From Candidatus Saccharimonadales bacterium (GTDB taxonomy: Bacteria > Patescibacteriota > Saccharimonadia > Saccharimonadales > 2-12-FULL-41-12), in contig JAYRJB010000001.1 of assembly GCA_041906505.1 (NCBI GenBank), positions 10,585 through 74,584 on the forward strand: a DNA stretch of 64,000 nucleotides, written 5' to 3'. The first letter of the stretch is position 1. Every line of letters starts with the position of its first letter. Of this stretch, positions 1,978-48,459 are shown piece by piece. The notes below the pieces were generated by a model. It ran no database searches, was not told the DNA's origin, and saw only the letters and a list, made by a program, of their open reading frames with translations. Both the position numbers and the translations under genes were made by a program.

Positions 1978-1983
1978 TAGCCT

Positions 1984-3898: not shown

Positions 3899-5217
3899 GT
3901 CAGCAGCTCCCGCTTTTGACCCGTTAGTTTTTCCCAGCGCTTCAAAGCTACCTCGGCATAGACAGGAGACTTCTCCATGATGTAGCAACGACGATTTAGC
4001 TTACTGCTGGCGATTAGCGTTGATCCGCTACCACAGAAGGGCTCTACCACTAGGTCACCACGCTTTGTGAGCACCTTGATATATGGAATTAAGATCTCCA
4101 ATGGCTTGGTGCCAAACACCACGCCTTGACCGGAGTGTTTTTCATCACTAGCTTGGAATTCTATAAAGTCGGTTGGTTGGTATTTCTTACCGCCTTTGTA
4201 ACCCTCCCATTGGGGTTTGCCGCTGATGGCATACAGTGCCGTTTCATGCTCCTCTTGCAAACCAGCTGACTCTTCATCGTGATTGTAGGGTATGGCGCCG
4301 CTGCCGCCGACCATGGCGATGTCATGTTTGCTAAAGAACTTGTATTTGGCACTAAAGCCCTGGTGTCGGTTGGGTAAGTGCCAGACGATCATGTTTTTGA
4401 CTTTCCAGTACTTTTCCATCTCAGCCCATATGACACGGAGGTTCTTCCAGTTTTCATATACTATGATGCTGTAGTCAGGCTTAGCGTACCTAGCAACATT
4501 TGCCATCCAAAGTTCTGTAAAGTTATCAGGCAGTTCGTCAGTCTCAAGGTAGCGGCGATTTTTCTTAGCCCCAAAGCCGGTAGTTGGTTTGCCGCCACGC
4601 TTGGCGTGCAAGTAATCTAAGATGTAGGGTGGATCGGTCATGCACATGTCTGCAGACTCGCCGTTCATAAGCTTATCGAAATCTTCTGGTATAGTACTGT
4701 CACCAACCATCAGGCGCGAATCACCCAGCTTGTAGACGTCACCTTTCTTGGCTTTAACTTGCTTGATATCTAGCTTCTTGAGCTCTTTTTCGAGATCAAA
4801 ATTCTCTGGCTCGTCCACTTCGATATCAAAAATAGTATCCAGCTCCTCACTGCTGAAGCCGATATCATCCAATAGGGATTCATCGAATTCGGACAATAAA
4901 TCCCAGTCCCAATCACCTTGGTTTTTGTTGAGCCGAAGGTTCAGCTCTCGCTCTTTTTCTTCCTCTGGAATATCCAGATACACCACTGGCACTTCGGTTA
5001 AACCCAGATCTTTAGCCACCTTCAGCCGAAAATGCCCACCGATCACGATGTTTTTGCGCTGCTGCGAACCGTTAACCAGGATTGGGTCAACCAGCCCGAA
5101 CCGCTTGATGCTTTCTGTTAGCTGTTCCGTGGTGTCTTCATTCCACGATCGTGGATTATAATCGGACGGTTTGAGGTCGCCGATTTTCACCTGTTGTATT
5201 GATAATTTGCTCGTCAT
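3895..5217 (-). CDS. ParB-like nuclease domain fused to N4/N6 DNA methyltransferase (phage type)
   Basis: The N-terminus is ParB-like (DYNPRSW, GGHFRL). It has the catalytic MTDPPY motif and a C-terminal SAM motif EPFCGSGSTLIA. The start at 5217 is preceded by AAGGAG. Confidence 0.8.
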   Translation of the reverse strand: MTSKLSIQQVKIGDLKPSDYNPRSWNEDTTEQLTESIKRFGLVDPILVNGSQQRKNIVIGGHFRLKVAKDLGLTEVPVVYLDIPEEEKERELNLRLNKNQGDWDWDLLSEFDESLLDDIGFSSEELDTIFDIEVDEPENFDLEKELKKLDIKQVKAKKGDVYKLGDSRLMVGDSTIPEDFDKLMNGESADMCMTDPPYILDYLHAKRGGKPTTGFGAKKNRRYLETDELPDNFTELWMANVARYAKPDYSIIVYENWKNLRVIWAEMEKYWKVKNMIVWHLPNRHQGFSAKYKFFSKHDIAMVGGSGAIPYNHDEESAGLQEEHETALYAISGKPQWEGYKGGKKYQPTDFIEFQASDEKHSGQGVVFGTKPLEILIPYIKVLTKRGDLVVEPFCGSGSTLIASSKLNRRCYIMEKSPVYAEVALKRWEKLTGQKRELLT

Positions 5218-5251
5218 ATATGCTCCTTTTGTTAAGTTATGACAAACCAAT

Positions 5252-5283
5252 TAAAAATCGTCCTGACAAAAAATATCAGGACG
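5252..5283 (-). terminator. rho-independent terminator (minus strand) between the wHTH gene and the ParB-methylase gene
   Basis: An 8-bp stem CGTCCTGA/TCAGGACG (5259-5266 / 5276-5283) is followed on the minus strand by ATTTTTAA. Confidence 0.55.
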
Positions 5284-5308
5284 AAAATGGGTCGAATGAG
5301 GGGCGAAA

Positions 5309-5905
5309 CTACTGTAAGTAGACCAGCCCTTTGGCAGCAATGCCTTGACCTGGAGGTCGATCGTAATCCAATTTGTAGCCTTGCTGGCTAAGTTGCCACT
5401 TTAGATCTTTGAAGTCTTTATCAAGCCTGTCAGTCTTTACATGTTCCCGAAGTGTTTTATAGTCTACTATTTCAGCGCGGCGATTCAGCAAAAGCTGCAA
5501 CAGCCTGCCACACTTTGATGAACTAGGGTTTAGGATTTTAAGTTCATTTCCATCAATCTTGAAGTAGCCATACTCGGCTTCTTCAACTAGTAGATATTTA
5601 TCCGGAGGTCGACCAAGACAATCCTCCGTTTGGCCAACAGGTCTTGGCACGTAGTAAATCGGCTTAAATGTAAATAAGAACCGCAATGGTTCGACTATTT
5701 TCATTATTGATTCAGTGATAATCTCAATCCAGCGTTTCATTCGCTCAGCGATTAGCTGGAGTGACTTTCGCATTGGCTCCATGTACTCATGGAGCACCTT
5801 AGCTGCTGTTACTTGGGCAGAAAGAGCATTGTTCATTGCCGCAGCGGTTGCGCCAAAGTTGAAAGCAGATGCTACTTTTATTTGAAGTGATTTGTTGATA
5901 TCCAT
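5309..5905 (-). CDS. hypothetical protein with possible C-terminal winged-helix DNA-binding domain
   Basis: The ORF is trimmed to Met70 (MDINKSL...), which has a GAGGT RBS. The C-terminal LLNRRAEIVDYKTLREHV...GQGIAAKGLVYLQ resembles an OmpR-type wHTH. Confidence 0.4.
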   Translation of the reverse strand: MDINKSLQIKVASAFNFGATAAAMNNALSAQVTAAKVLHEYMEPMRKSLQLIAERMKRWIEIITESIMKIVEPLRFLFTFKPIYYVPRPVGQTEDCLGRPPDKYLLVEEAEYGYFKIDGNELKILNPSSSKCGRLLQLLLNRRAEIVDYKTLREHVKTDRLDKDFKDLKWQLSQQGYKLDYDRPPGQGIAAKGLVYLQ

Positions 5906-5924
5906 ATCATTAGACCTCGCAACT

Positions 5925-6236
5925 CTAACGAACCCCACAAGGTGGGTTATGGAATTCACGTACAGCAGATTCAAGCGCCATCCTATCTGCAGCGCTACAG
6001 TAACATGCCGACACATATAACTTGTCACTAACGTGTAGATTCCACTGGTCCTTGCGGTTGTGTGAATTGATGCGATTTTGGACGTCTTCAGACTCGCCGA
6101 CATCCAGAACACGGTGTAACCCGTTTACTATTGTTGTTATTACGTATACCCCTGACTGCGCCAAAAGTGAAGCGATTGAGGTATGAGGACCGTCGAACTG
6201 TACTGGCCCTTGTTGAGTGTGAACGTTTAAGCTCAT
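5925..6236 (-). CDS. small hypothetical protein, weakly GIY-YIG-like
   Basis: SGVYVIT...VLDVGESEDVQNRINSH loosely fits GIY...YIG...R...H. It has a GAGAGGG RBS and is the first gene of the leftward operon from the switch region. Confidence 0.35.
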   Translation of the reverse strand: MSLNVHTQQGPVQFDGPHTSIASLLAQSGVYVITTIVNGLHRVLDVGESEDVQNRINSHNRKDQWNLHVSDKLYVSACYCSAADRMALESAVREFHNPPCGVR

Positions 6237-6313
6237 GATTACCCTCTCTTAGTTGTTAAATTTTGCTTTTGTGTATCCCGGTGCTCCACCTTGCACTTTG
6301 ATCACTATCTTAT

Positions 6314-6386
6314 AGTTTAGCTAACCGTAAAAGGGGTGTCAACAGATTTGTTGACACTTGAGTAATTATGACGTTATATGTATAAT
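6314..6386. promoter_or_regulatory. divergent promoter pair sharing one palindromic operator
   Basis: The perfect inverted repeat GTGTCAACA-gatt-TGTTGACAC lies at 6336-6357. Each arm holds a TTGACA -35 hexamer, on the minus strand at 6337-6342 and on the plus strand at 6351-6356. The minus-strand -10 TAAACT (6314-6319) has a 17-nt spacer. A plus-strand TATAAT at 6381-6386 pairs with a -35-like TTGAGT at 6358-6363 (17-nt spacer) and ends 8 nt before the ATG at 6395. Confidence 0.45.
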
Positions 6387-6394
6387 AACATCTA

Positions 6395-7042
6395 ATGAAT
6401 GAGACACAGGAACGAATACTAGCATTAGCAAAACAGAATGATGTTAGTGCCATGGGGGTGCGGGAGTTAGCCCGTCAACTAGGTGTACATCCACAAACCG
6501 CCAAGTATCATCGTGAACAACTAATAAAAAAGGGGCTGATACGTCGCACTGGCACATTTAAGGCATCAACGGTTGAACAGAACATATTTGACGGTGCAGA
6601 TTTAGTAACCATACCCTACTTAGGTGCTGCAAATTGTGGTCCCGCTGCACGCTTTGCTGGTTCGGAGCCTGAAGGACGTATTGGCGTATCTTCACGCTTG
6701 CTTAGAACCAAAAAATTCGGATCGCTCTTTGCTATTAAAGCTGATGGTAATTCAATGAATCAAGCTAACTTATTCGGGGAGCCAATTGAAGACGGAGATT
6801 TTGTTATCGTTGATAGCGAAGTGGAACCAAGAAAAAACGATTATGTTGTTGCAACGGTAAATAATCTAGCAAATATTAAAAAATTTGTGCCTGAGTTCGG
6901 ATCTGACGGAACTCTACATAGGATTATTCTCGTTTCTGAATCTTCATCAGAGTATGAGCCAATATTCATTCATCCTGAAGACGAAGATGAAGGATTAATC
7001 GCAGGTGTTGCTATCCAAGTTTTAAAAAAACCTATTATGTAG
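6395..7042 (+). CDS. LexA/CI/UmuD-like repressor (N-terminal wHTH plus S24 peptidase domain)
   Basis: The wHTH reads GVRELARQLGVHPQTAKYHREQLIKKGLIRR. The hinge IPYLGAANCGPA has Cys81-Gly82 where LexA has Ala-Gly (UmuD uses Cys-Gly). The catalytic Ser sits in ADGNSM (Ser120) and the Lys in ANIKKF (Lys162/163). Confidence 0.8.
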   Translation: MNETQERILALAKQNDVSAMGVRELARQLGVHPQTAKYHREQLIKKGLIRRTGTFKASTVEQNIFDGADLVTIPYLGAANCGPAARFAGSEPEGRIGVSSRLLRTKKFGSLFAIKADGNSMNQANLFGEPIEDGDFVIVDSEVEPRKNDYVVATVNNLANIKKFVPEFGSDGTLHRIILVSESSSEYEPIFIHPEDEDEGLIAGVAIQVLKKPIM

Positions 7043-7051
7043 GTACTCTTC

Positions 7052-8290
7052 ATGTCTACTGAGTATCGTAATAATCACTATGTTCCCCAGTGGTATCAAA
7101 AAAGATTTATACCCGGCATCCAGGAAAATAAAGAATTATACTATTTAGACCTGAAACCGGGTACGTTTACTGATCCGAGAGGAGTTGTTCATCAGAAAAG
7201 AGCCATTCATAAGCAAGGCACACGATTATGTTTTGCGGAAGACGACCTTTACACAACGTGGTTTGGTGATGAACGGCAAGTTGAAATTGAAAAAATATTC
7301 TTTGGAAACGTAGATGCTCGCGGGCGCGATGCAGTTAAGTTTTTTGATGAATATAAGCACTTCGAATCTAGTTGGGATGGAGATCCGCTCCGCAATTTAA
7401 TGCTATACATGAGTACTCAAAAGCTTCGCACCCCGAAGGGGCTTGATTGGCTGGCGACGCAATTAGGTACTACCGACAGGAACGCTATTTTAAACTTAAT
7501 GCTCCAATTGAGACAAATTCATTCTGCAATATGGGTTGAGTGTATATGGCAAATCGCTGATGCAAATGAATCTGACACTAAGTTTATTATTTCGGACCAC
7601 CCGGTCACCATATACAACAAATTTTTAGGACCACGAAATAAGCAATGGTGTCGAGGTTCTAATGATCCAGATATCACCCTGAACGCATCCCACACTATTT
7701 TCCCGCTATCACTTAATAAGGTGTTGATTCTTACAAATTTATCCTGGCTTAGAAATCCATATCAAAATGGCACCAAGCAACGCCCAAACCCTAACCCATT
7801 GAGGCCAGCGATGTTTAACTTTCAGCACATACAAACAGGACGATTGCTTACAGAACAAGAAGTGAGAGAGATTAATTTCATTATAAAAAGTAGATCCTTC
7901 AAGCACATTGCAGCGGCACGAGAGGATTGGCTTTATCCTGAAAAATTTGTTTCAAAATCCGACTGGAACAGTTACGGCGATGGATTATTACTTATGCCAG
8001 ACCCAAGGGGAATTGAATTCGGCGGCGAAATGATTATGGGTTGGGACGACGGCAGATCTACTGCATTTGACGAATACGGTAGGCGTCCTTGGGAAAAGGG
8101 TTACGGCCAGCATGCAGGTCATAATGAGTTTCAGACACATTATCAGTTTAAGGGTGACTTTGCTGAAAAGTTTGGTCCTTATCGTCGTGGTAGGGGTATA
8201 AGTATGGGCGACATAGATCCAGAGTTTGACACAGATAGCATGCACGAATATCACCTAAGTCTGTCTAAAAAGAATCGTCGAAAGAAGTAG
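7052..8290 (+). CDS. DUF4238 domain protein
   Basis: It has the N-terminal signature NHYVPQWYQKRF and the central ISDHPV block typical of DUF4238. It starts 9 nt after the repressor gene's stop. Confidence 0.7.
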   Translation: MSTEYRNNHYVPQWYQKRFIPGIQENKELYYLDLKPGTFTDPRGVVHQKRAIHKQGTRLCFAEDDLYTTWFGDERQVEIEKIFFGNVDARGRDAVKFFDEYKHFESSWDGDPLRNLMLYMSTQKLRTPKGLDWLATQLGTTDRNAILNLMLQLRQIHSAIWVECIWQIADANESDTKFIISDHPVTIYNKFLGPRNKQWCRGSNDPDITLNASHTIFPLSLNKVLILTNLSWLRNPYQNGTKQRPNPNPLRPAMFNFQHIQTGRLLTEQEVREINFIIKSRSFKHIAAAREDWLYPEKFVSKSDWNSYGDGLLLMPDPRGIEFGGEMIMGWDDGRSTAFDEYGRRPWEKGYGQHAGHNEFQTHYQFKGDFAEKFGPYRRGRGISMGDIDPEFDTDSMHEYHLSLSKKNRRKK

Positions 8291-8322
8291 AGACCATTAG
8301 CCTTCAGGCGTAGAATAGTAAT

Positions 8323-9516
8323 GTGTATACACATCTTAAGGAGCGCCAGTATTATGAGAATTTATATGACCGTTTAACGGTTGATTATGCTCGCGATCAC
8401 ATAGGCTATTACGATAAATTCCACGACGAATTCAAAGAAAAGCTACCCAAGGGCGAAAAGATCGATCGTCCGGGCAATGCTTTTCTACTAAACATCTTCT
8501 ATATGCAGACCATCGGTAACGAGTTGCTCCGGCGTTATGAAAACCGCGAGCAGCAAATCACCGAATGGATTGCTCTTGATGAAGTAAAAGACGACCAAAT
8601 TGAAGTGGCACGTCTCCACGAAGAGCCGTTGTGCAGCCACTGTAAGAAGCAAGGCCTACGAATCATCGACAAATCACTAATGCATCGGCGAGAAAACTCT
8701 AAGTACGATGACCCAGAAGAAGTACTATTTATGCTGAAGTGCCCGCACTGTGATAAAAACAGCGCTTTCTGGGAAGATGGCACCGCTTGGAAGGCTAAGC
8801 CAACACTATGCCCAAAATGTAGTACTGAAGTAACTCATAAAACATCTGAGTCTAAGAAATTCATCACTATTACTTACAGTTGCCCTAAATGTAAGCACAG
8901 CTTCAAAGAGAAGTTAGATATTGGCACTAAAGAAGAAAGACCCGATCCAGACTTCGAAAAAGACCGTGCCCACTACTGTCTGCATGACAAAGAATTCCGG
9001 GATCATTTATTTGCTATCAGAAAGGGTTTTGAGGATATGGCTCGGCTCGGCAAGGAGATGAAGGAAAAGCAAGACAACAAGCACATCTATGATGCCGTAA
9101 AAGAAATGAAGAAGCCAAAAATTGCCGAGCTGATTCCTCTATTATCTGAACCATTGGAAAAGGCTGGTTATATTGAGTTTCACTTGGATAAACCCGAGAT
9201 GGGGCGCGATGTTTATGTAGGCTTCAGCTGCCTTGACAGCAAATCTGACCGAAATGATTACGACAGCAGAAAGACATTGAAAAAGCTAGTCGATAGTGCA
9301 CTTGAGGAAACTAACTGGCGACTGATGAGTGATGGCATCTCATATCGGCTAGGCTACCTTAACGGCCGCGTTAGAGCATATGAAGCCGAAGAGGATCTGA
9401 AAAACCTGGTTATGAAGAGCAAGAAGTTGAAGCCCAAGCAAACAAGTGGCAAGGTTATCAACAAAGGCAACGAAAAGACGCTAAAAGCTCCAGATGGCAC
9501 TGAAATAATTCTATAA
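8323..9516 (+). CDS. hypothetical protein with two zinc ribbons (4 x CxxC)
   Basis: The CSHC, CPHC, CPKC and CPKC pairs lie in residues about 104-191, and no catalytic motif is recognised. It has a GTG start 32 nt after the DUF4238 stop with a weak RBS, and no other in-frame start is available. Confidence 0.55.
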   Translation: MYTHLKERQYYENLYDRLTVDYARDHIGYYDKFHDEFKEKLPKGEKIDRPGNAFLLNIFYMQTIGNELLRRYENREQQITEWIALDEVKDDQIEVARLHEEPLCSHCKKQGLRIIDKSLMHRRENSKYDDPEEVLFMLKCPHCDKNSAFWEDGTAWKAKPTLCPKCSTEVTHKTSESKKFITITYSCPKCKHSFKEKLDIGTKEERPDPDFEKDRAHYCLHDKEFRDHLFAIRKGFEDMARLGKEMKEKQDNKHIYDAVKEMKKPKIAELIPLLSEPLEKAGYIEFHLDKPEMGRDVYVGFSCLDSKSDRNDYDSRKTLKKLVDSALEETNWRLMSDGISYRLGYLNGRVRAYEAEEDLKNLVMKSKKLKPKQTSGKVINKGNEKTLKAPDGTEIIL

Positions 9517-9665
9517 ATCGAGACATACCTGTTTCGTGTCTCATTTGTCCCATTTACTCCTGTAATCAAAGTTCTAGACCAAGACGCTCAGCCAATTTTT
9601 TCTATCTGTTATTTCAAATCTACCATGATGGACGCTAGAACCTAAGGGTTTTTAGAACTTCTTTA

Positions 9666-10898
9666 CTAAAACTGCTTAGCACCTAAACTAAGTGGTTCTC
9701 GTGGCAGACCGTGTGCAAGGTTTTGGTTCTTATAGCGCCGATCTTTAGTAACATCACGTCCAAACCATTTTGGTGGCTCGAATGTCATCGCTTTTACTTC
9801 AGCATCTTCTTGGCGTCCAGTGAATTCCACCTCCGCAGTTATGAGACCAGTGAGATGCCCCTCATATATATCAAGCTCAATTGTATGTTTGCCATATGGT
9901 ATCTTGTAGCGCGTCTTCTCAACCCTCATTCCTGCAGTTTGCGCCCATAGAACTTCAAACATATCTTTCGGGAGTTTTATAGTTTGCTCTGCTCGCTGAA
10001 CGGTACCTAACGACTTGACCGTCAATTCAAACCGCTCATTATCAAAGCTTCTTATGCGAGTTTCTGCGCCATCACTGCTGACAACTACGTAGCCTTGTCG
10101 AAGCACAGTGCGTGGCGCGTCTTTGAGATCAATTTCTTCTGGTATTTCATCTATTAGGAATTTGAGCTCGGTTTCAATTGGACCTCTTGCAGCCTCTTTC
10201 ACTTTTAGTTTTTCGTTAGGGTTTGCTTTATACTTTTCCTCAAAATCAATTGCTAGCACAGCATGGGCGGCAACTAGGTCAGGAAAATCTTGCCCAAACT
10301 TTTCTTGCATGCGCGCGAAAAGCTGGTTATGGGAGACCTCGAGACCAGTTAGGTCAGATACTCCATAGTCTTCGCGAACAATTCGCAGACCATCTCCAGT
10401 AATGTCGACTGCCACAGGCAGTAACTTATCTACCATGCGCACAAACACGGCTTCACTTCGTGCTTGTTGCTCATATTCCTGAAAGTCTTGGGCGACGCTT
10501 GCCGAAATCTTTGATAAACGCTCAAAAACGACGCGCTTTGCTTCCTGCTCACGACGATCTTTTTCTTTCAACTCGGCTGCATTTAGGTCAAATGTCGCTA
10601 CATCGCCAACTTCAACTTCGAGCATGTCATGAACTAGAGAAAATCTTCTTATTTTTTCAACATCAAGGTCTGGATAATAACGTTCAGCTATTGCAGGGGC
10701 GGCGACTGCAAGCATAAAGCTATGCTCTACATCGTTTTCACGCCTACTATCTGCAAGCCTTGGTATTCGTTCAATGTTAGAAAAATCATCGGTCAGTTGG
10801 CTCGCTCCTAGAACTACATTCCCAATACCCCTGGCGGTATCATATCTCTGGTCAATATTTACCTCGCCTGGAAATCTATCGTTAAAACTGTCAGCCAC
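9666..10898 (-). CDS. HD phosphohydrolase domain fused to CYTH (triphosphate tunnel metalloenzyme) domain
   Basis: The N-terminus is an HD domain (NDVEHSFMLA ... SLVHDMLEVEVGD). The C-terminus is CYTH (IETELKFLI gives ExExK, then RQGYV, IRSF, EKTRYKIPY, IELDIYEG, LITAEVEF). It uses a GTG start. Confidence 0.7.
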   Translation of the reverse strand: MADSFNDRFPGEVNIDQRYDTARGIGNVVLGASQLTDDFSNIERIPRLADSRRENDVEHSFMLAVAAPAIAERYYPDLDVEKIRRFSLVHDMLEVEVGDVATFDLNAAELKEKDRREQEAKRVVFERLSKISASVAQDFQEYEQQARSEAVFVRMVDKLLPVAVDITGDGLRIVREDYGVSDLTGLEVSHNQLFARMQEKFGQDFPDLVAAHAVLAIDFEEKYKANPNEKLKVKEAARGPIETELKFLIDEIPEEIDLKDAPRTVLRQGYVVVSSDGAETRIRSFDNERFELTVKSLGTVQRAEQTIKLPKDMFEVLWAQTAGMRVEKTRYKIPYGKHTIELDIYEGHLTGLITAEVEFTGRQEDAEVKAMTFEPPKWFGRDVTKDRRYKNQNLAHGLPREPLSLGAKQF

Positions 10899-11078
10899 TA
10901 AATGTCTTCCCTTTACTCATTGTTACATGATAGCTCTGCATATATGCATTCACAAACATAAACAGAATTATTATCAAGGCCCCCTTGCCGAATCCGCAAT
11001 AATTATGGTTCTAATTTGGACCACCACACCCGGCCAATTTTGAAGTTAGAAACTGCGCCCAGGGTCTAGCCACCTAGA

Positions 11079-22195: not shown

Positions 22196-22852
22196 TTATA
22201 GCGTCTTCTTTGTTGTTGAATTGTCACGACGCCATTCTTCGATCTTGGCGTGGTTTCCTTCCAGGAGCACCCGCGGAACCTTCATCCCGCGAAATTCCTC
22301 GGGTCGAGTATAGTGTGGGTGTTCTATGGTATGACCGTCTGAAAAGCTTTCTTGTGCCGCGCTGGTTTCGCCACCAAGCACACCAGGCAGCAAACGAACA
22401 ACTGAATCAACCAACACCATTGCAGGAAGCTCGCCCCCCGTGACGATGTAATCACCAATTGAGATGGTTTGATCAATGATTGACAACACCCTCTCGTCAA
22501 TCCCTTCATAGCGCCCACAAACAATGATCATCCCCTTTTTTTGATTTGCAATTTCTTGAGACAGGGCTTGCGTAAGTTGCCTACCTCCCGGCCCCATGTA
22601 GTAGGTAAGGGCTGTGGGGTCTTGCGTTTTCGCATGTTCAATAGCAGCAAAAAGGGGTTCGGGCTTTAACAGCATTCCATCCCCACCGCCGTAGAGAATA
22701 TCATCTACCTGCTTTCTTTCGCCAACTCCGAAATCGCGAAGGTTGATATAGCTGTAGTCAACAATACCTTTGAGTTTTGCCTTATATAGCATGCTCGCCT
22801 CAAGGGCGCTCGGAAACATGTCGGGAAAAAGCGTGATAATCTGAATTTTCAT
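22196..22852 (-). CDS. trmD: tRNA (guanine37-N1)-methyltransferase
   Basis: It contains [23 protein letters not shown] and [16 protein letters not shown]. Confidence 0.9.
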
Positions 22853-22871
22853 CTTTACTTACATTATATAG

Positions 22872-22896
22872 AAAAACCCCAAAGAAAGGGGTTTTT
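22872..22896 (-). terminator. hairpin terminator between the KH-protein gene and trmD
   Basis: The stem AAAAACCCC / GGGGTTTTT has a 7-nt loop. On the minus strand a T-run closes the stem, and TATAAT lies just before the trmD start. Confidence 0.5.
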
Positions 22897-22987
22897 CTAT
22901 CACATAAAGCTCCCATTCAACGCCTGTGAATGTCTCGCTGAGCTTTTTTTGTTTTTTTGTCCCTGCTTTTTCAGTGACTAGGACAGA

Positions 22988-23422
22988 TTATACATCAAGA
23001 TCATCAAGATCTTCTAGTTCTTTCCTCGTCTTCGCAACAACATCACTCTCTTTTTCCTCGACAAGTTCATCGACAACTTCGTCTTCGTCTTTTTTCTTGC
23101 TAACACCGGATTCTTCCCTCTTTGACCAAGACTCATCCCCTCGATCCTCTTGTTTGCGTTGCTCGGGGGCAACTCCGTTATCAACAATTTTCAAGTTGTA
23201 GCGGGCGTCGTTTTTTGTCCCTAAGGCTCTTAAGAGAGTTCGCACGCTTTGGGCGGTCGCACCGCGTTTGCCAATTACCCTACCCAAATCTTCTGGGTCA
23301 ACCGTCAACTCTAACAAAACACCCTTCTCATCAATTGTTCTTGTGATTTTAACCTCGTCCGGTTTGGTTACAAGAGATTTTATAACAAACTCAACAAATT
23401 GCTCGTCAATACTCACAGGCAC
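22988..23422 (-). CDS. KH domain RNA-binding protein (UPF0109/YlqC family) with acidic C-terminal tail
   Basis: It contains LGRVIGKRGATAQSVRTLL, and the last roughly 60 aa are rich in E, D and K. Confidence 0.75.
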   Translation of the reverse strand: MPVSIDEQFVEFVIKSLVTKPDEVKITRTIDEKGVLLELTVDPEDLGRVIGKRGATAQSVRTLLRALGTKNDARYNLKIVDNGVAPEQRKQEDRGDESWSKREESGVSKKKDEDEVVDELVEEKESDVVAKTRKELEDLDDLDV

Positions 23423-23515
23423 ACTCCTCGATTACTGTAATTAGATTAGCACTACTATTATATCAAAATCCGAACCCATCCCTGCACTTTTTCCGAAAGA
23501 TATGCAGATATTCTT

Positions 23516-24616
23516 TTAGGTTTTATGCCCAACTAGCTGCCGACGTTTTATGGTCGCGGCATATTCTTTTCTTAACCACTTGAGCCCATCGATTATGAAT
23601 TCTCTTTCGTCTTGAAACTCTTTTTTCGACATTTCAAAAAAATGCCTTTGGTCTCGTCGCTCTTTTAAGGTTTCAGCATGGCCATTAAGCCCTATTTCGG
23701 TTGCCAGCTCTATGCAGGTTTCGACCATTTGGTCCGTTTCATAGACTTCGTCCTCATCAAGAAGTGACGGCTCTTTTTCGACCGCATATTGTCGAACGGC
23801 ATCCAAGAAGCCAGTCCCTTCTTCGGATACACGCATGTTGGTAGTCTGACCATCATGATTTTTTTTGACTTCGACGTAGCGTTTCTCATACACGAGGGCG
23901 GTGAGCTTTCGTCCAAACACGTCGGGCTCCATTTCAAGCTCTGTGGCAACGTCGTGGGAGCAGGGTATGTCATTTGTTTCAAAGTACAACCAATTGCCAG
24001 GGTTGCCCTTTCTGAGCGCTTGATCAGAAATATGCTCAAGTATCTTGATCGTCGTGGGCGCGTTTAGATATGATTTGTTAATTTTTTGCTCTGACTCATC
24101 TTCTTCGCTATAACTCTTGACAGCTTCATACACCGTCTCTACTAATGAGGAGCCGCTAGCGGTGAGGCTCAGTTCACTCTCGTCATCACTGTGCGCTATA
24201 TAAACTACGGCATTTTTGGCTTCAAGGCGTTGACTGGCGCGCGTGTAGGTATCTGGGTCAGACTTTCTACCGAACAGATCTCGAACTACAAGATGCGGCT
24301 TAGGTGCCAAAATAACACCTTGATTTTGATCCAAAGCGACCAAAATTTCTTTTTGGCAAATTCCGAGCTTAGTTTTTTTATGATCAATATGTTCTGGAAG
24401 TGTCACATTAATTGACGCTAAAACTCGGGAGCTAAACTCCTTCAACAAACCTGGGTCGGGGTTAGTTTGGCCATTTACACCAAAGCCTTCACCTAACTGT
24501 TCGAGCCAAAGTTGGCCACTAACAGCTTCACCGTGATCAGCAGTAACGCCTCGGAAATGGCTGTCGAGTTCTTGATTCCCACCGCCAGTTAGTTGTTGAC
24601 TCTCTGGACTTTTCAT
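23516..24616 (-). CDS. acidic hypothetical protein, possibly two winged-helix-like segments
   Basis: The ORF is trimmed to Met50, which has an AGAGGA RBS. No recognisable catalytic motif is present. Confidence 0.45.
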   Translation of the reverse strand: MKSPESQQLTGGGNQELDSHFRGVTADHGEAVSGQLWLEQLGEGFGVNGQTNPDPGLLKEFSSRVLASINVTLPEHIDHKKTKLGICQKEILVALDQNQGVILAPKPHLVVRDLFGRKSDPDTYTRASQRLEAKNAVVYIAHSDDESELSLTASGSSLVETVYEAVKSYSEEDESEQKINKSYLNAPTTIKILEHISDQALRKGNPGNWLYFETNDIPCSHDVATELEMEPDVFGRKLTALVYEKRYVEVKKNHDGQTTNMRVSEEGTGFLDAVRQYAVEKEPSLLDEDEVYETDQMVETCIELATEIGLNGHAETLKERRDQRHFFEMSKKEFQDEREFIIDGLKWLRKEYAATIKRRQLVGHKT

Positions 24617-24717
24617 ACGCAGTATTTCCTCTATTATAAAAGGTTCGGTTATATTACACAAACTTGAAATATCTTTCGTGTTATAGTGAAAGCTTAAGCA
24701 CACGAGAGGAAATAAGC

Positions 24718-24978
24718 ATGCCAAATTCAAAAGATCAATCTGACCAAGAACACCAACACGCACATATTCAATTCAACATTGACGTTCAGAAAACCCCTAC
24801 TCTCTACGCGGATTCATACCTTATAGTCTCGAACGAAAACGCAGTTACCCTCAATTTTGCTCAAGCCATGCCCGACCCAAAGCAACAAAACATTGTCTCT
24901 CGAATTGCAATGAGCCGAGTCCAAGCAAAGGAGTTTGTGAAAACGCTCGAAGACCATATCGCAAAATACGAAGTGTAG
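24718..24978 (+). CDS. DUF3467 family protein
   Basis: LYADSYLIVSNENAVTLNFAQAMP...VSRIAMSRVQAKEFVKTLEDHIAKYE matches the DUF3467 pattern. The ORF is trimmed to Met19, which has a GAGAGGA RBS. Confidence 0.6.
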   Translation: MPNSKDQSDQEHQHAHIQFNIDVQKTPTLYADSYLIVSNENAVTLNFAQAMPDPKQQNIVSRIAMSRVQAKEFVKTLEDHIAKYEV

Positions 24979-25003
24979 ACTCGCTTCGCTCTCACACATA
25001 ATT

Positions 25004-25028
25004 AAAGCCGCCCCAAGAGGGCGGCTTT
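25004..25028. terminator. bidirectional hairpin terminator between convergent genes
   Basis: The stem AAAGCCGCCC / GGGCGGCTTT has a 5-nt loop. Confidence 0.6.
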
Positions 25029-25052
25029 AATGACTCGGTTTTTTAGTGTTTC

Positions 25053-25586
25053 TTAGGCTTTTTTGAGTTCTTTTCGAACAGTGTTGGCCTCGATGGCAGC
25101 TATCACAAGTGCAATACCTCCCGCAATGGTACTAAGACCGATTAGCCACACAAGTGCAATCGCACCTTCCTTGGGGTTCGCAAAAATATAGAACCCAAAG
25201 ATCGTATAAACTACCCCCGCAAATATTTGGAGCCAGTTATTTTTTCCTTCAAAGCCAGCAACCACTTGAAGCATACCGACAGCAACTGCCCAAATGGCAA
25301 TTACCGTGAGCGCCACGAGCGCACTGATTTGCGGATTAGAAAAAACATAAAGCCCTGCCACCGCGCTGATTACACCGACGAGTGCTGTCCCAGCCCAGCT
25401 GCCTTCACGGTTTGCAAATGCCCCAACCAACATAACCACACCAGCGGCAAGCAAATAAACCCCTAGCACTACCAAAAATGCTTTTAGGGTGATGCCTGGC
25501 CACGCTAAAATAAGCGCACCAAAAATTACCGACAGCGCCCCCCATAGGCCCAGTGCCCACGAAGCTGCCTTTAGTTCACTTTGCAT
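25053..25586 (-). CDS. HdeD/DUF308 family membrane protein
   Basis: It has a repeated-TM pattern with GALSVIFGALILAWPG. Confidence 0.65.
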   Translation of the reverse strand: MQSELKAASWALGLWGALSVIFGALILAWPGITLKAFLVVLGVYLLAAGVVMLVGAFANREGSWAGTALVGVISAVAGLYVFSNPQISALVALTVIAIWAVAVGMLQVVAGFEGKNNWLQIFAGVVYTIFGFYIFANPKEGAIALVWLIGLSTIAGGIALVIAAIEANTVRKELKKA

Positions 25587-25673
25587 TGTATCTCCTCCCT
25601 TAGCTTTGTAACTGCACTATACCACTACGACTAACAGATACAAACCATAAGCATTTTCGATTTCTTTAGAGAC

Positions 25674-25844
25674 TTATTTTTCTACCCGCACGTCTTTAAA
25701 TGGTGCTCTGTCAGATTTTACGTTTATAAACTTGCCTGTCTTGGTATCTCTCTCAACGTAGCGCTTAGTTTTCGGATTGAACGTTTGTGATCGGCCTGTT
25801 ATGCGCCCTATTCTGCCGTGTCCCTTTGGTCCATTCTTTGCCAT
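25674..25844 (-). CDS. small basic protein (56 aa), absent from the ORF track
   Basis: My own translation is MAKNGPKGHGRIGRITGRSQTFNPKTKRYVERDTKTGKFINVKSDRAPFKDVRVEK. A GGGGGAG RBS lies 3 nt upstream of the ATG. Confidence 0.5.
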   Translation of the reverse strand: MAKNGPKGHGRIGRITGRSQTFNPKTKRYVERDTKTGKFINVKSDRAPFKDVRVEK

Positions 25845-25968
25845 GACTCCCCCAATTGCTTATCTTTTGATGCACGCACATAATTAGCTGTGCGCTCATC
25901 ACTATTTTATCAATTTCTCAATATTTTCTTTTAGAAATCTTTTCGTTTTTTCGTGATAGTCTTTATCT

Positions 25969-26904
25969 ATGGAATCAAAGTCTTGGCACAACCCCGTTTT
26001 CAAAAAACTTGCAGCTTCTGAGCTTGGTGGAAGTAGTGGGCATACTTCTGGGATTGTGCCAACAAAAAGTACCCAGAGCTATTTTGGAACACCCAAAAAG
26101 CAAGAAACGCACAAAATACACGAACTCGTAATTGAGTTTTGGCACGATGATGCCAGCAAAGTAATTACAACAAACGTGAACTATTTCCTTGCACCACCAC
26201 ACCACGACCACATTCACATTACCGGCAATATTCTTCCCGCCTACAAGGAGGCTGGGGCCAAAGTTGGGGATATATTGGTTTTTTGGAAATCACGAAATGA
26301 CGAAACTGACTTTAAGGCGGAGCTTATTGCGAAGAACTCTGAGCGCTGGATCGAAGCGGAGAAACACGGCAGCAATCTTTCCCTCCCAGGTGGCGCGCTT
26401 CAACTAAGCCCTCCCGGGTTATTAAGCTCAAAAGACTTTGAGGTCCTCGAGGATACGAGCGATTATGCAATTGTCTCTGCTATCGAAGATACATTTACTG
26501 ATAATAATTTTCCGACAGTCCCGCGCGAAGGAAGAAAAAAACAAGGCGAGAGATACATCACCTATCGTAGCAAACGAAAAGGAGATTATGCGCTAAAAAA
26601 ACAGAGTTATGTGTGTCAAATTGATTCGAGTCATAAAACTTTCATAACCCCAGTTGGTGTTCCCTACATGGAAAAGCATCACCTTATCTCAATGAAGTTT
26701 TACGAGGAATACACCAACGACCTGGATGATATACATAATATCGTTAGCCTGTGTCCGACCTGTCACAGAAAAATTCACTACGGAAAAAAGTCTGAAGTCA
26801 GCCACATGCTTGAATTATTGCTAAAAAAACAGGGTCAAATACTTGAAGGTGCGGGCTTCTCCATCAACTTGACGGAGTTAAAGAAAAAATATGGAGTGGT
26901 TTAA
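25969..26904 (+). CDS. HNH restriction endonuclease with possible B3-like (EcoRII-N/BfiI-C type) N-terminal DNA-binding domain
   Basis: The C-terminal HNH reads EKHHLISMKF...IHNIVSLCPTCHRKIHYG. The N-terminal VFKKLAASELGGSSGHTSGIVPTKSTQSYFG resembles the B3 pseudobarrel opening motif. Its stop overlaps the stop of the convergent methylase gene (TTAA). Confidence 0.75.
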   Translation: MESKSWHNPVFKKLAASELGGSSGHTSGIVPTKSTQSYFGTPKKQETHKIHELVIEFWHDDASKVITTNVNYFLAPPHHDHIHITGNILPAYKEAGAKVGDILVFWKSRNDETDFKAELIAKNSERWIEAEKHGSNLSLPGGALQLSPPGLLSSKDFEVLEDTSDYAIVSAIEDTFTDNNFPTVPREGRKKQGERYITYRSKRKGDYALKKQSYVCQIDSSHKTFITPVGVPYMEKHHLISMKFYEEYTNDLDDIHNIVSLCPTCHRKIHYGKKSEVSHMLELLLKKQGQILEGAGFSINLTELKKKYGVV

Positions 26905-27956
26905 TTTCCCCTTTGCAGCAAAGGACTGTGAGTAAATAGAGTTTCGAGTACGCTTTTTGCAACGTTAAGCGTTATTGCGTTGCCGGCCTGTCGATATAGC
27001 TGCGTGTCAGAAACGCCGGCTTTTTGGGCCTTCTCAGCAAATGAATCCTCAAATCCTTGCAAACGAAATGCTTCTTTTGGTGTCAATTTTCTGATTCTAT
27101 TGTGGCCACTTTGTGCGGGCAGCACCTTTTTTCCATCGAATGTACCATGAATAAAGTTGTCAGAATAATAGTTATCTTGGTTTGCTCTGTGCATCTTGTG
27201 CATCGTTGCCGTAAGTGGTCTGGCATGAATCCTGTTAATCTCTGATTTCGAATAATAGCCACCGCTGCCATGCTCCAAAATAGTTTTTATCATTTTTTTT
27301 GAAAGGTAATATTTTTCATCTACCTCTTGTTCTAAAAGATGCCAAACGGTTTTGTATCGAGTTTTGCTCATTGGCTTGTCAAATTGGGCATCAGAGATAT
27401 AACGAAAATCCTTTTTTCTTTTGACGCCAATAAAGTAGAGTCTTCGCCGGTGTTGTGGCACCCCAAAATCAATGCTGTTAAGAAGCTCGGTTCTCAAACT
27501 GTAGCCAAGCTCTTCTGTCAATATTTTTACTATTCTCTCGTACGTCTTGCCTTGGTCGTGCGTCTTTATTCCCCGCACATTTTCCAAAATGAAAAAGTCT
27601 GGTTTTTTTACCGAAAGAATCTTTGCGATTTGGAAAAATAACGTGCCTCTTGTGTCTTCAAAACCGGCCTTATCTCCCATTAGGCTAAACGGCTGACAAG
27701 GAAAACCTGCGAAAAGTACATCAAATTGTGGGATATTTTTTATATCCGCCAATGAAAGTTTAGAAATATCACCGATCGGCACTTCGTTTTTATTAAGCCG
27801 AAAGTTGGCATGATAGGTTTTTAGTGCATGCGGGTCTATCTCGCTATAACCAACGCATTCTGTAGCAAACCCGATCTTTTTCGATGTTTGCTCAATCGCA
27901 GCACGAAACCCCCCAACACCCGCAAATAAATCTACATACCGAATCGGCTTTGTCAT
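26901..27956 (-). CDS. dcm: DNA (cytosine-5)-methyltransferase
   Basis: It has motif I DLFAGVGGF, motif IV GFPCQPFS, motif VI ENVRG, motif VIII QHRRRLYFIG and motif X RQAGNAI. Confidence 0.9.
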   Translation of the reverse strand: MTKPIRYVDLFAGVGGFRAAIEQTSKKIGFATECVGYSEIDPHALKTYHANFRLNKNEVPIGDISKLSLADIKNIPQFDVLFAGFPCQPFSLMGDKAGFEDTRGTLFFQIAKILSVKKPDFFILENVRGIKTHDQGKTYERIVKILTEELGYSLRTELLNSIDFGVPQHRRRLYFIGVKRKKDFRYISDAQFDKPMSKTRYKTVWHLLEQEVDEKYYLSKKMIKTILEHGSGGYYSKSEINRIHARPLTATMHKMHRANQDNYYSDNFIHGTFDGKKVLPAQSGHNRIRKLTPKEAFRLQGFEDSFAEKAQKAGVSDTQLYRQAGNAITLNVAKSVLETLFTHSPLLQRGN

Positions 27957-27963
27957 GGCTCTA

Positions 27964-29121
27964 CTATACCAACCTTTTCATAAGCGTTTTTGCAATAACC
28001 TCACTTAACAGTGGCGGTACTGCGTTGCCAATCTGGTTGTACCACTGAGAGTACGGCCCCTCAAAAATGTAGTCATCCGGGAAACTTTGAATTCGAGCCG
28101 CCTCTCTGGGCGTAAGACCACGAACTTCATACGGATGAATGTACATGTTGCAGTCAAATTTCATGTGAGATGTGATTGTTTTTGACACCTTGTTCGGATC
28201 AAGCTTAAAGTATTTATCCTTGAATATGTGGGAACGAGTTTTATAAGGCATTATGTGGGCAATGCTTTGGTGATCAGATCTTCCGCCTTGCGGCAAAAGT
28301 TTATATATCTCAAGGTCGCGGGGGTTGTTATACCGCGCCTTATGATTATAGGTGCGTTTAGGAGATTTGCCCCGGTTAATCGCAGTGATGTATTTATTCG
28401 CTGGGGACCGTGCAAAAATTTGGTCCTCAAAAAACCCACTGTCTGCCGATTCGATACTTGTGTCCCCCTTTTTTTGTCGTGCCGATAACCTCCTTAATCC
28501 CCACAGTGCATCTTTAATTGGCACAGTAGCGGCTGTTTTTGCGCGCTCTATGTCAGAAAAAAGCTGCTGCAATTGCTGGCGAGGATTTGGCAGGGCGTCC
28601 TTCCTAACACCAATGTAGATGAGCCTTTCACGATTTTGCGGTATACCATAGTCTTTCGCATTTAAGACAATATAGTCCGCTACATACCCAATTGCGTTAA
28701 ATGCATCTACTACCACAGGTGCTACCGGCAGCATTCCTTTCACGTTTTCCATAAGAATAATCTTGGGTTTTGTTATTGCAATCGCGTGTATGAACTTCTT
28801 AAATAGCACATTTCTTGGATCATTTAATAAGCGCTGTCGGTTGGCCATACTAAAGCCTTGACACGGTGGCCCACCAACCACAACTGAAATGTTGGTTTTC
28901 CGTAACGCATCGGCTTGTTTGTCGATAAAATCGTCAATATCACTATGAACAATTTTCTCTTTCGCTAGCGAGGGGTGATTTTTTCTATAGGTAAGGACCG
29001 AAGATAAGTCATTGTCGTTTGCCAAAAAAATCTCAAAACCAGCACGGCTAAATCCGAGAGACAACCCTCCAGGACCACAAAATAAATCTACAACAAGAGG
29101 TTGCTTTGTTTTTTTAGTCAT
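27964..29121 (-). CDS. dcm: DNA (cytosine-5)-methyltransferase (second copy)
   Basis: It has motif I DLFCGPGGLS, motif IV GGPPCQGFS, motif VI ENVKGM, motif VIII QNRERLIYIG and motif X QIGNAVPP. Confidence 0.9.
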   Translation of the reverse strand: MTKKTKQPLVVDLFCGPGGLSLGFSRAGFEIFLANDNDLSSVLTYRKNHPSLAKEKIVHSDIDDFIDKQADALRKTNISVVVGGPPCQGFSMANRQRLLNDPRNVLFKKFIHAIAITKPKIILMENVKGMLPVAPVVVDAFNAIGYVADYIVLNAKDYGIPQNRERLIYIGVRKDALPNPRQQLQQLFSDIERAKTAATVPIKDALWGLRRLSARQKKGDTSIESADSGFFEDQIFARSPANKYITAINRGKSPKRTYNHKARYNNPRDLEIYKLLPQGGRSDHQSIAHIMPYKTRSHIFKDKYFKLDPNKVSKTITSHMKFDCNMYIHPYEVRGLTPREAARIQSFPDDYIFEGPYSQWYNQIGNAVPPLLSEVIAKTLMKRLV

Positions 29122-29186
29122 TGCCTACAATTATAGTCTAGGGTGGCACAAAAAGTCAGGGGCGATTCTTATTTGTCCAGTCTCGC

Positions 29187-30110
29187 CTATCTGGGAAACT
29201 GAGGACACGGCGCTGGCGTAGCCGTATCGGCACGAAGACTGAGTAGTAGTTGCTCATATGAAATATTGCCCAGTTTTTGCAGTATACCTGCCGCCCGTAG
29301 TTGGGCGATTGAATTGTGCCGCTGCTTCGGTCCAAGCGACGAGTTTTTGATGCAACTGCGTACGGTGTCTATTTCTTCTGGCGTAAGCACCGTAAGATCC
29401 CTGGTGTCCAGTGGGCGCATATCAATTAGCTCCTCTTTAAAGGCCGCTGTGATCAGTTCGTCCTTTGTAAGATCGTTTTTCTTTTGGGCGTTAGAAAATA
29501 GCCGAAACTGATCAGTTGGATGTATTCCGGCTCGCTTTGTTATCTCGGCACTGGTTAGCGCAAGGGAACCTAAGAATTTGGCTTCTTGAGGTGTAAGTAC
29601 TAGAGAACTCTCTTCGCGGTTATAGGGACTCGGTCTATTAGAAGCCTTGGGTTTTGGCAAATTCATTTCCTCTCCAATTTCAACCAAATCCCGTTCAAAG
29701 TTAATAATTGCTATTAAATCATCGCCCGTAAAGTAACCCCTTGCAATCAAGGAGGGTTTTGCCGGTTCATAGGAACTTGCCCTTGTGCCAAATACGCGCT
29801 GTCCCGCAATAGAGTGTCTTGCACACAGTTCACTTATTGGTTGTTTTGGCGCAACATTTCTCTTTGCGACAGCATAAATTATTTCGTCGTGGTCTTTAAG
29901 ACCAAAGGACCAACTATTCCCCATTAGCTCCGAGAACACACCCAGGTCACGCCGGGTAATTTCGATATTTCGATGTGGTTCAAGAATTGACTCTACCTCA
30001 GAAAAGAACTCGGAAAGCGACGTTCGCTCTGGATCCATTGCGCCTTTTAGGGCATGACGAAGTGGCGTTTCGTACGCTTGCAGCCATTGCTCTTGTTGCA
30101 GTTCACTCAT
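29187..30110 (-). CDS. hypothetical protein with degenerate LuxR/GerE-type HTH-like repeats
   Basis: LTPQEAKFLGSLALTSAEITKRAGIHPTDQFRLFSNAQKK and LTPEEIDTVRSCI...SIAQLRAAGILQKLG resemble LuxR C-terminal HTH units. Confidence 0.4.
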   Translation of the reverse strand: MSELQQEQWLQAYETPLRHALKGAMDPERTSLSEFFSEVESILEPHRNIEITRRDLGVFSELMGNSWSFGLKDHDEIIYAVAKRNVAPKQPISELCARHSIAGQRVFGTRASSYEPAKPSLIARGYFTGDDLIAIINFERDLVEIGEEMNLPKPKASNRPSPYNREESSLVLTPQEAKFLGSLALTSAEITKRAGIHPTDQFRLFSNAQKKNDLTKDELITAAFKEELIDMRPLDTRDLTVLTPEEIDTVRSCIKNSSLGPKQRHNSIAQLRAAGILQKLGNISYEQLLLSLRADTATPAPCPQFPR

Positions 30111-30160
30111 TTAAAAACTACGTTACCCCAACATCATCAACCGACGCAAGCCCGCACCAA

Positions 30161-30198
30161 ACGAAAAATAAAATCCGCATCGAACGTGATACGGATTT
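30161..30198 (-). terminator. rho-independent terminator after rpsP
   Basis: The stem AAATCCGCATC / GATACGGATTT has one mismatch and is followed on the minus strand by TATTTTTCGT. Confidence 0.55.
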
Positions 30199-30243
30199 AT
30201 GTGATTGTGAGGCAATCCAAGAACCGAATGTGTTATTGCAGTT

Positions 30244-30795
30244 TTATGGCTTCTTCTGCTCGCCCTTCTCCTCTGGCGCAGCTTCTTCAACGACTGGCTG
30301 CGCTTCTTTATCGTCCACAGCAGTATCAGTTTCATCAACCGTAGCCGTCTCGTTACCGCTTGATTTCTCAGCCTCAGCGACTGCTTCGCCGTCTGCCGAC
30401 GGAGGAGTTTTTTCGACTTCTGGTTTCTGTTGATCTTCTTGCTGGGTGTTTTCGGCCTCAGTCTTCGGAGACGTCGTCTCGGCAGGCTGGTTTTTGCGAA
30501 GTTTCTCGGGATTCCTGGTTGTCCGAGAGTGTTTGGTGGGCTCTTGTACCCACTTCGGCAGTTTAATACCTTCCGCACTAAATAGCTGAGCAACCCTATC
30601 GGAAGGATGCGCGCCGTGGTCAAGATAAAATTGCGCCTTTTCTTTTACTAGTGTGTTGGTCTTGGTGTGGGGGTCATAGCTACCAAGGTGCGCAACATAC
30701 TTACCGCTCGTCGGAGCTTGTCGAACATCTTGAACAACCACCCTATATGTGGGATGACCTTTTCGACCAAGTCGTTGCATACGAATCGCGAGCAT
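30244..30795 (-). CDS. rpsP: 30S ribosomal protein S16 with about 100-aa low-complexity C-terminal extension
   Basis: It starts MLAIRMQRLGRKGHPTYRVVVQDVRQAPTSGKYVAHLGSYDPH, and the tail is rich in E, K, P, T and A. Confidence 0.9.
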   Translation of the reverse strand: MLAIRMQRLGRKGHPTYRVVVQDVRQAPTSGKYVAHLGSYDPHTKTNTLVKEKAQFYLDHGAHPSDRVAQLFSAEGIKLPKWVQEPTKHSRTTRNPEKLRKNQPAETTSPKTEAENTQQEDQQKPEVEKTPPSADGEAVAEAEKSSGNETATVDETDTAVDDKEAQPVVEEAAPEEKGEQKKP

Positions 30796-48383: not shown

Positions 48384-48459
48384 TGGTGGCTCCTCCCAGA
48401 CTCGAACTGGGGACACAAGGCTCTTCAGGCCTCTGCTCTACCAACTGAGCTAAAGAGCC
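48384..48459 (-). tRNA. tRNA-Phe (anticodon GAA), CCA encoded
   Basis: The acceptor is GGCTCTT/AGGAGCC and the anticodon loop is CTGAAGA. Confidence 0.85.

Follow-up and report, generated by a model that had tools for sequence, protein, structure and literature searches.

We report a three-gene restriction–modification (R–M) cassette at positions 25969–29121 of a 64,000-nucleotide (nt) stretch of contig JAYRJB010000001.1 from a Candidatus Saccharimonadales bacterium, the whole of which we call the window. We read it, with a probability of about 0.7, as a self-contained type II R–M system with the asymmetric target CCTGA/TCAGG and one methylase per strand, a reading that rests on sequence comparison and structure modelling and whose parts differ in firmness. 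That this is a genuine R–M system, with a nuclease that joins a B3-like DNA reader to an HNH catalytic domain, appears highly probable; an asymmetric recognition site is likely, and a target that is or contains CCTGA is slightly favoured over any other. We infer, with support from the sequence, that the cassette is of the type IIA class.

The nuclease gene, R (25969–26904, + strand), encodes a predicted restriction endonuclease of 311 amino acids (aa) in which a linker joins a B3-like reader to an HNH nuclease. It converges on two C5-cytosine methyltransferase genes of family PF00145: M_A (26901–27956, − strand; 351 aa), M2-like in the nomenclature of LlaJI-type operons and Dcm/SsoII-like overall, and M_B (27964–29121, − strand; 385 aa), which is M1-like and the first gene of the methylase operon. 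The three open reading frames (ORFs) are intact, with the coordinates assigned in an initial annotation made from the DNA letters, and the strings that it had quoted from R, VFKKLAASELGGSSGHTSGIVPTKSTQSYFG in the N-terminal region and CPTCHRKIH in the C-terminal region, are both present in the translation. A TTAA that it had described as common to the nuclease and the first methylase can be read at 26901–26904, where it holds both converging stop codons and belongs to neither strand in particular. It had also stated that Vsr and a controller protein are missing: tblastn with two Vsr proteins of related cassettes as queries (E ≤ 1) found no Vsr in the window, and inspection of the translated small ORFs at 25590–25965, made without a Pfam scan, gave no obvious helix-turn-helix (HTH) or controller candidate. 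These results agree with both statements; what the annotation overlooked is the relationship of the cassette to LlaJI-type operons and the Vsr genes of several related cassettes.

Residues 1–145 of R (25969–26403, + strand) are predicted to form a B3-like DNA-binding pseudobarrel, the putative sequence reader. The AlphaFold2 prediction for full-length R, based on an alignment of 41 sequences, has a mean predicted local distance difference test score (pLDDT) of 90.6 and is disordered (pLDDT below 50) only at linker residues 154–162, and a separate AlphaFold model of residues 1–145 scores 92.1. When the whole-R model was compared with the PDB using Foldseek, EcoKMcrA came first, through its HNH domain, followed by B3 structures that include the N-domain of LlaJI.R1 from H. 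pylori (6c5d), EcoRII-N (3hqf), BfiI-C (3zi5), UbaLAI (5o63) and many plant B3 domains. For the domain-only model the best 35 matches were all B3/pseudobarrel folds, with probabilities of 0.99–1.00, after which only noise followed; TM-scores reached 0.69 when normalised to the query (EcoRII-N, 3hqf) and 0.74 when normalised to the target (a plant B3 domain), and no PUA, SRA, EVE or McrB-N fold was among these matches. Direct Pfam matches to B3 (PF02362) and EcoRII-N (PF09217) were obtained for 0 of 41 members of the R family. A profile of the N-domain found only 21 proteins among 1.84 billion representatives, the distant ones (E from 1e-7 to 5e-4) being assigned by Pfam to EcoRII-N, several of them with a C-terminal HNH_2 domain, and hhalign aligned the R family profile with P0338, an EcoRII-N-positive protein, at a probability of 95.9% (E = 5.9e-9, 123 columns). 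The B3-like fold proposed in the initial annotation is thus supported by two models and their Foldseek matches and, through intermediates, by profile homology to EcoRII-N proteins. The domain is strongly conserved within the family (consensus PVYKxLAxSELGAGHTSGIVPxKxTQxYFG...THDHIHLTGN), and its opening motif, FKxLxxS(D/E)xG...GH..G...P...YF, is common to R and B3-type restriction enzymes; the GHTSG loop and the THxHxHxTGN segment are candidate DNA contacts only.

The reader is joined through an interdomain linker (about residues 146–200; 26404–26568, + strand), modelled partly at low confidence (154–162) and, in the family alignment, poorly conserved and variable in length, to a C-terminal HNH (beta-beta-alpha-Me) domain with a Cys/His zinc site and C-terminal helices (26569–26904, + strand). 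Pfam HNH matches residues 232–271 (E = 1e-5, above the curated cut-off), and C216, H222, H237, H238, N257, C262, C265, H266 and H270 are invariant in the family alignment, which together bear out the HNH domain recognized in the first reading of the sequence. By these residues the predicted active site and zinc site are complete, comprising the catalytic His, the Asn, the metal-binding His and the structural zinc ligands. The sole solved relative of R by sequence is the HNH domain of EcoKMcrA (6ghc), a modification-dependent enzyme, found at E = 2.4e-7 when R alone was the query and at 6.4e-12 when the family profile was used. Among 5.8 billion proteins searched, 72 matched R, about 43 of which are full-length homologues (290–350 aa, 36–86% identity); the remainder match in the HNH part only and carry other N-terminal domains (DUF3578, EVE, HNH_2-type) typical of type IV enzymes. 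Plasmid and phage collections held HNH-domain matches and no full-length homologue.

The three genes travel together. Around 10 non-redundant cassettes were recovered from genome and metagenome collections, with R identities of 42–86%, and those beyond the window were screened for the R, M_A and M_B genes only. Their methylases co-diverge with the nuclease (51–93% identity), and every cassette with enough flanking sequence has the order R (+), M_A (−), M_B (−), in neighbourhoods that differ between lineages. Because this arrangement is invariant in all full-length R homologues with enough flank, it is no chance arrangement. Hosts with a name belong to Candidatus Saccharibacteria, Wildermuthbacteria and Woesearchaeota, which are candidate phyla radiation (CPR) bacteria and DPANN archaea, and most of the cassettes come from these two groups. 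Four lineages carry a Vsr mismatch endonuclease gene beside the methylases (L001, 7118–7525; L004, 9165–9542; L014, about 6500–6900; L027, about 5590–5970), and the window and its close relatives gave none. Genes for an McrB-like GTPase (R1) and for RE_LlaJI/McrC (R2) are absent from the window cassette and from the available gene tables of some other cassettes; the LlaJI-type operons used as references carry both.

Both methylases are canonical. PF00145 covers the whole length of M_A (E = 2.7e-83) and M_B (E = 8.5e-70), the NCBIfam model TIGR00675 matches each in full, and the Dcm model likewise covers all of M_A. Motifs I (FxGxG), IV (PCQ), VI (ENV), VIII (QxRxR) and X (GN) are present in the two proteins, as DLFAGVGGF, GFPCQPFS, LENVRG, PQHRRR and QAGNAI in M_A and as DLFCGPGGL, GPPCQGFS, MENVKG, PQNRER and QIGNAV in M_B. 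The pair of distinct 5-methylcytosine (m5C) methylases announced by the initial annotation is therefore intact. M_A and M_B can be aligned over the catalytic core only (29% identity over about 180 residues), and so they have different target-recognition regions. Among known enzymes, M_A is 39% identical, end to end, to the methylase of pKPN2, which is M.Kpn2kI and identical to M.SsoII (PMC3695355). Database annotation of the methylase homologues supplied no informative names or specificities.

In a plasmid collection the top full-length matches of M_A and M_B are adjacent genes of Treponema saccharophilum plasmid pTS1, and the second-best match of M_B lies on Pedobacter pA27BH1, next to a methylase gene whose product aligns with M_A over its full length. 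Both operons read M1, M2, AAA ATPase and a fourth gene, annotated as a LlaJI-family restriction endonuclease in Treponema and as a hypothetical protein in Pedobacter. Over full length M_B is 47% (Treponema) and 44% (Pedobacter) identical to M1 of these operons and M_A is 41% and 37% identical to M2, and the order M1 then M2 is common to the window cassette and the LlaJI-type operons. M_B is also 52–55% identical to methylases of 470–500 aa; one of 499 aa (52%), the only one whose context was examined, belongs to a LlaJI-type operon of Bacillus pumilus. There (L009, 5790–11925), a methylase pair that includes the M_B homologue stands with a LlaJI-type AAA_5 and RE_LlaJI pair. A relative of M_A (49% identity) precedes the gene of a NOV_C-domain protein in a Weeksellaceae genome, where a methylase pair with one M_A homologue accompanies a 368-aa NOV_C protein whose N terminus reads IKRLSKADLG (L011, 5281–9203). 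We considered a B3 domain in that protein and rejected it, the short 'KRLSKADLG' resemblance being not significant. A small HTH gene precedes both the Bacillus and the Weeksellaceae operons.

The cassette thus shares a predicted M1–M2 module and reader fold with LlaJI-type systems, but the absence of both R1 and R2 sets it outside the LlaJI family. The LlaJI system of Lactococcus lactis pNP40 recognizes the asymmetric site GACGC/GCGTC and has one m5C methylase for each strand (PMC1459862), and its specificity is set by R1, a B3-bearing, McrB-like subunit (PMC7680126). As in LlaJI, the window cassette has two m5C methylases in the order M1 then M2 and a B3 domain as its putative specificity element, the top Foldseek B3 match of R being LlaJI.R1-N of H. 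pylori (6c5d). It differs in that the R1 GTPase and the R2 McrC/RE_LlaJI are missing, so that the fused HNH domain would cut, presumably independently of GTP and translocation, and in its gene order, the nuclease gene being convergent with the methylase genes rather than placed after them. GACGC, the LlaJI/HgaI site, was tried as the target and rejected: the match to the LlaJI methylases is confined to the core, and GACGC shows no avoidance in host DNA, flanks or cassettes.

A different word emerged when all 4-, 5- and 6-mers were scanned, with both strands counted and the expectation taken from a Markov model of order k−2. No pentamer is scarcer, relative to expectation, than CCTGA/TCAGG in the window's host DNA once the cassette is set aside. 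The window has 30 copies, 22 of them in the first 10.5 kilobases (kb), where the word is not depleted (22 versus about 20 expected), and eight remain between 10.5 and 64 kb. The remaining 50.2 kb of host DNA holds 7 copies against 39.0 expected (ratio 0.18, Poisson P = 4e-10); the next most depleted pentamer there has z = −2.4, and all single-substitution neighbours of CCTGA/TCAGG lie at observed/expected ratios of 0.9–1.5. The pentamer is again the most depleted one in the cassette flanks of a related genome of about 86% DNA identity (L035; 2 versus 11.3 expected). Within the cassettes themselves, it ranks first of 512 in the eight of other hosts (9 versus 25.3, P = 1.9e-4; the window and L012 left out), and the scan of all ten cassettes singles it out too, whereas control loci that lack the cassette show no depletion (143 versus 146.6 expected). 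One of the seven sites in host DNA, at 48425, lies inside a tRNA-Phe gene (48384–48459), where sequence constraint would prevent loss.

Loss of the site could reflect selection against self-restriction or deamination of m5C in a cassette without Vsr. The window clade has no Vsr and its host DNA is the strongly depleted one, which fits a possible contribution of m5C deamination; the products of CCTGA deamination (TCTGA, CTTGA and CCTAA), sought as a discriminator between decay and selection, have ratios of 0.99–1.15. CCTGA/TCAGG is CCWGG minus one base match on each strand, with the inner C retained on both, and it would be compatible with a Dcm/SsoII-like M_A and with a reader related to EcoRII-N. 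LlaJI-type operons with homologous methylases show no avoidance of CCTGA, and other specificities are therefore possible there.

The same word recurs at the predicted methylase promoter. Upstream of M_B the best promoter-like match (10 of 12 positions) consists of CTGACT, 18 nt, TATAAT, 8 nt and ATG, the predicted promoter of the M_B–M_A operon lying at 29130–29160 (− strand), and a CCTGA at 29156–29160, one of the eight copies left between 10.5 and 64 kb, overlaps its −35 box. This overlap suggests that methylation, or the binding of a methylase, probably adjusts expression without a controller protein. About 15–18 nt upstream of TATAAT before M_B, CCTGACTTT occurs in three lineages (L012 with L035, L002 and L022). 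The LlaJI operon of pNP40, which served as a positive control, has GCGTC and GACGC in front of M1, at −75 and −62, in agreement with its published epigenetic regulation, referred to in a citing passage of PMC11779793. A candidate recognition-site copy in the methylase promoter is thus a further likeness to that system.

Several observations weigh against the reading of the cassette as a type II system with CCTGA as its target. In other hosts the DNA that flanks the cassette shows no clear depletion of CCTGA (72 versus 83.5 expected), and several cassettes lack the promoter site, so that specificity may differ between cassettes or the avoidance may be due to another R–M system encoded elsewhere in the genome. 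Other short words are scarce in host DNA between 10501 and 64000, namely GGCC and CCGG (observed/expected about 0.7) and GTGCAC (4 versus 16.5 expected). The methylases are just 37–47% identical to their LlaJI-type counterparts and match the actual M1 and M2 of pNP40 in the catalytic core only (24–31% over about 180–230 residues), so that a specificity cannot be assigned to them by homology. Between the B3 domain of R and LlaJI.R1 N-termini no sequence similarity was detectable: BLAST gave nothing for those of Treponema, Pedobacter, B. pumilus and Lactococcus, nor did hhalign, applied to the Treponema protein only, and sequence homology between the two was rejected. Finally, the nearest relatives of the HNH module occur in modification-dependent, type IV-like enzymes.

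The alternative that survives best keeps the B3–HNH R–M system and gives it a target other than CCTGA, the avoidance then stemming from another R–M system or from mutational bias. The non-depleted flanks in other hosts, the restriction of the promoter site to three lineages, the depletion of other short palindromes in the window and the lack of a methylase of known specificity near enough to transfer a site would all agree with it. We consider it unlikely, though by no means negligible, because the same pentamer headed the list of 512 in each of three separate scans, one of them on cassettes of unrelated hosts that show no depletion in the flanks; because the site is kept exactly at the methylase promoter while the rest are lost from the genome; and because M_A resembles end to end the CCNGG/CCWGG methylases (M.SsoII is a CCNGG enzyme), CCTGA/TCAGG being one base off CCWGG on each strand.

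It is improbable that the target is palindromic or symmetric, one methylase being its cognate partner and the second redundant, a hitch-hiker or dedicated to single-stranded or hemimethylated DNA. Two-methylase systems for palindromic sites do exist, DpnII being one. Here, however, all cassettes and the homologous LlaJI-type operons keep both methylases in the same order, the variable regions of the two methylases are unrelated, and the sole strongly avoided word specific to the system is asymmetric. The asymmetric site that the initial annotation had deduced from the paired methylases accordingly gains indirect support, from the unrelated variable regions, the orthology with LlaJI-type M1–M2 and the asymmetry of the avoided pentamer.

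Very improbable, finally, is the reading of R as a McrA-like, type IV enzyme that depends on modification, has no functional tie to the adjacent methylases and reads modified DNA through its N-domain: the closeness of its HNH to EcoKMcrA, the fusion of HNH-only relatives to DUF3578, EVE and other modification-reader domains and the top PADLOC match of R, a type IV model that covers the HNH region only, would suit it, but the N-domain resembles B3 sequence readers alone and no PUA, SRA, EVE or McrB-N fold, a distant EcoRII-N plus HNH relative stands in a classical dcm–vsr–nuclease operon, and two m5C methylases are linked to R in every cassette examined, which would be suicidal for an m5C-dependent enzyme acting on the same site and implies that methylation blocks R rather than enabling it.

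Under the type II reading, the B3 domain of R would recognize an asymmetric sequence of a few bases, and the HNH domain tethered to it would cut the DNA at or near an unmethylated site. A double-strand cut would probably involve two R molecules, by dimerisation, or two nicking events. Cleavage outside the site, as in a true type IIS enzyme, is made plausible by the modelled reader–linker–nuclease layout, and we put it at even odds. M_A and M_B would each protect one strand with m5C, presumably at the inner C as in the CCNGG/CCWGG methylases that M_A resembles, and this methylation would block cleavage. Expression of the M_B–M_A operon would probably be tuned through the promoter copy of the site, with no controller protein involved, in the way published for LlaJI. 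As to evolution, a single-chain B3–HNH nuclease may have taken the place of the GTP-dependent, McrBC-like R1/R2 in an M1–M2 module of LlaJI type. The full conjunction (a first B3–HNH enzyme, compact, single-chain, nucleotide-independent and specific for CCTGA/TCAGG, an HNH fusion replacing the LlaJI-type motor, epigenetic control through one promoter copy of the site and a roughly five-fold purge of chromosomal sites) we advance tentatively, at clearly less than even odds.

Pseudobarrel readers are already known on PD-(D/E)XK, phospholipase-D and McrB-type partners, as are type II enzymes with an HNH domain and systems in which two methylases serve an asymmetric site. R shares the pseudobarrel fold and the modular build of reader plus catalytic domain with EcoRII, UbaLAI, BfiI/BmrI and NgoAVII/CglI. 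It departs from them in its catalytic partner, which is HNH rather than PD-(D/E)XK (EcoRII and UbaLAI) or phospholipase D (BfiI, NgoAVII and CglI), and whereas the B3 domain of EcoRII is an allosteric effector domain, that of R is the sole candidate reader. With EcoKMcrA it has in common a homologous HNH domain and the layout of N-terminal reader, linker and C-terminal HNH; unlike EcoKMcrA, it has a B3 sequence-reader fold instead of a 5mC reader, and its gene always occurs with two methylases.

The nearest relatives of the N-domain outside the family are the EcoRII-N plus HNH_2 proteins, which likewise combine a B3-type reader with HNH next to an m5C methylase. They differ from R in their HNH subfamily (PF13391) and in having a single methylase plus Vsr, an arrangement that suggests a symmetric site, and the relation is remote (E from 1e-7 to 5e-4). 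Thauera aminoaromatica plasmid pTha01 carries a dcm–vsr–'HNH endonuclease' operon (L033, 3220–5969) whose nuclease is 38% identical over full length to P0338 (EcoRII-N plus HNH_2 by Pfam). By its sequence this type represents a second, uncharacterised family of putative B3–HNH enzymes, with a single methylase. Our literature search found no experimental description of EcoRII-N plus HNH_2 proteins, and a search for B3-like, EcoRII-N or pseudobarrel domains together with HNH found no described B3–HNH restriction enzyme.

If confirmed, a B3 reader with an HNH cutter would be a new domain combination among restriction enzymes, with a probably new asymmetric specificity and possible use as a reagent or modular scaffold; we know of no characterised enzyme with CCTGA/TCAGG specificity. 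The cassette would also be a case of nuclease modules being swapped around a conserved methylase pair, with the LlaJI-type GTPase/McrC, the single-chain HNH and possibly NOV_C as the exchanged parts. R–M systems are thought to be the main defence of Saccharibacteria-like CPR bacteria, and a roughly five-fold loss of sites would be a strong footprint in such small genomes. With the site kept at the promoter, self-regulation by methylation in place of a controller protein can be put to a simple test.

In the window clade the cassette has a fixed place between rpsP (30244–30795) on one side and the KH-domain gene (22988–23422) and trmD (22196–22852) on the other. These three genes usually form one conserved cluster, which is split here by the cassette and extra ORFs (22196–30795); L012 and L035–L042 have the same arrangement of rpsP, cassette and KH–trmD. 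The additional ORFs encode a DUF308 protein (25053–25586), a 56-aa protein (25674–25844, − strand), a DUF3467-like protein (24664–24978) and proteins of 415 aa (23516–24763) and 307 aa (29187–30110) without a family match.

The start of the window (1–10900) resembles a prophage or mobile island, and there, unlike in the rest, CCTGA/TCAGG occurs at its expected density. It encodes a TaqI_C specificity-domain protein (273–1214), a PD-(D/E)XK nuclease (1207–1977), a terminase large subunit (1984–3513, − strand), a fusion of ParB_N with an N6/N4 methylase (3895–5250, − strand), a repressor with LexA-like HTH and S24 domains (6395–7042), a DUF4238 protein (7052–8290) and an HD/CYTH protein (9666–10898). 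The scarcity of GGCC, CCGG and GTGCAC in the host DNA hints at further restriction systems in the genome or its history.

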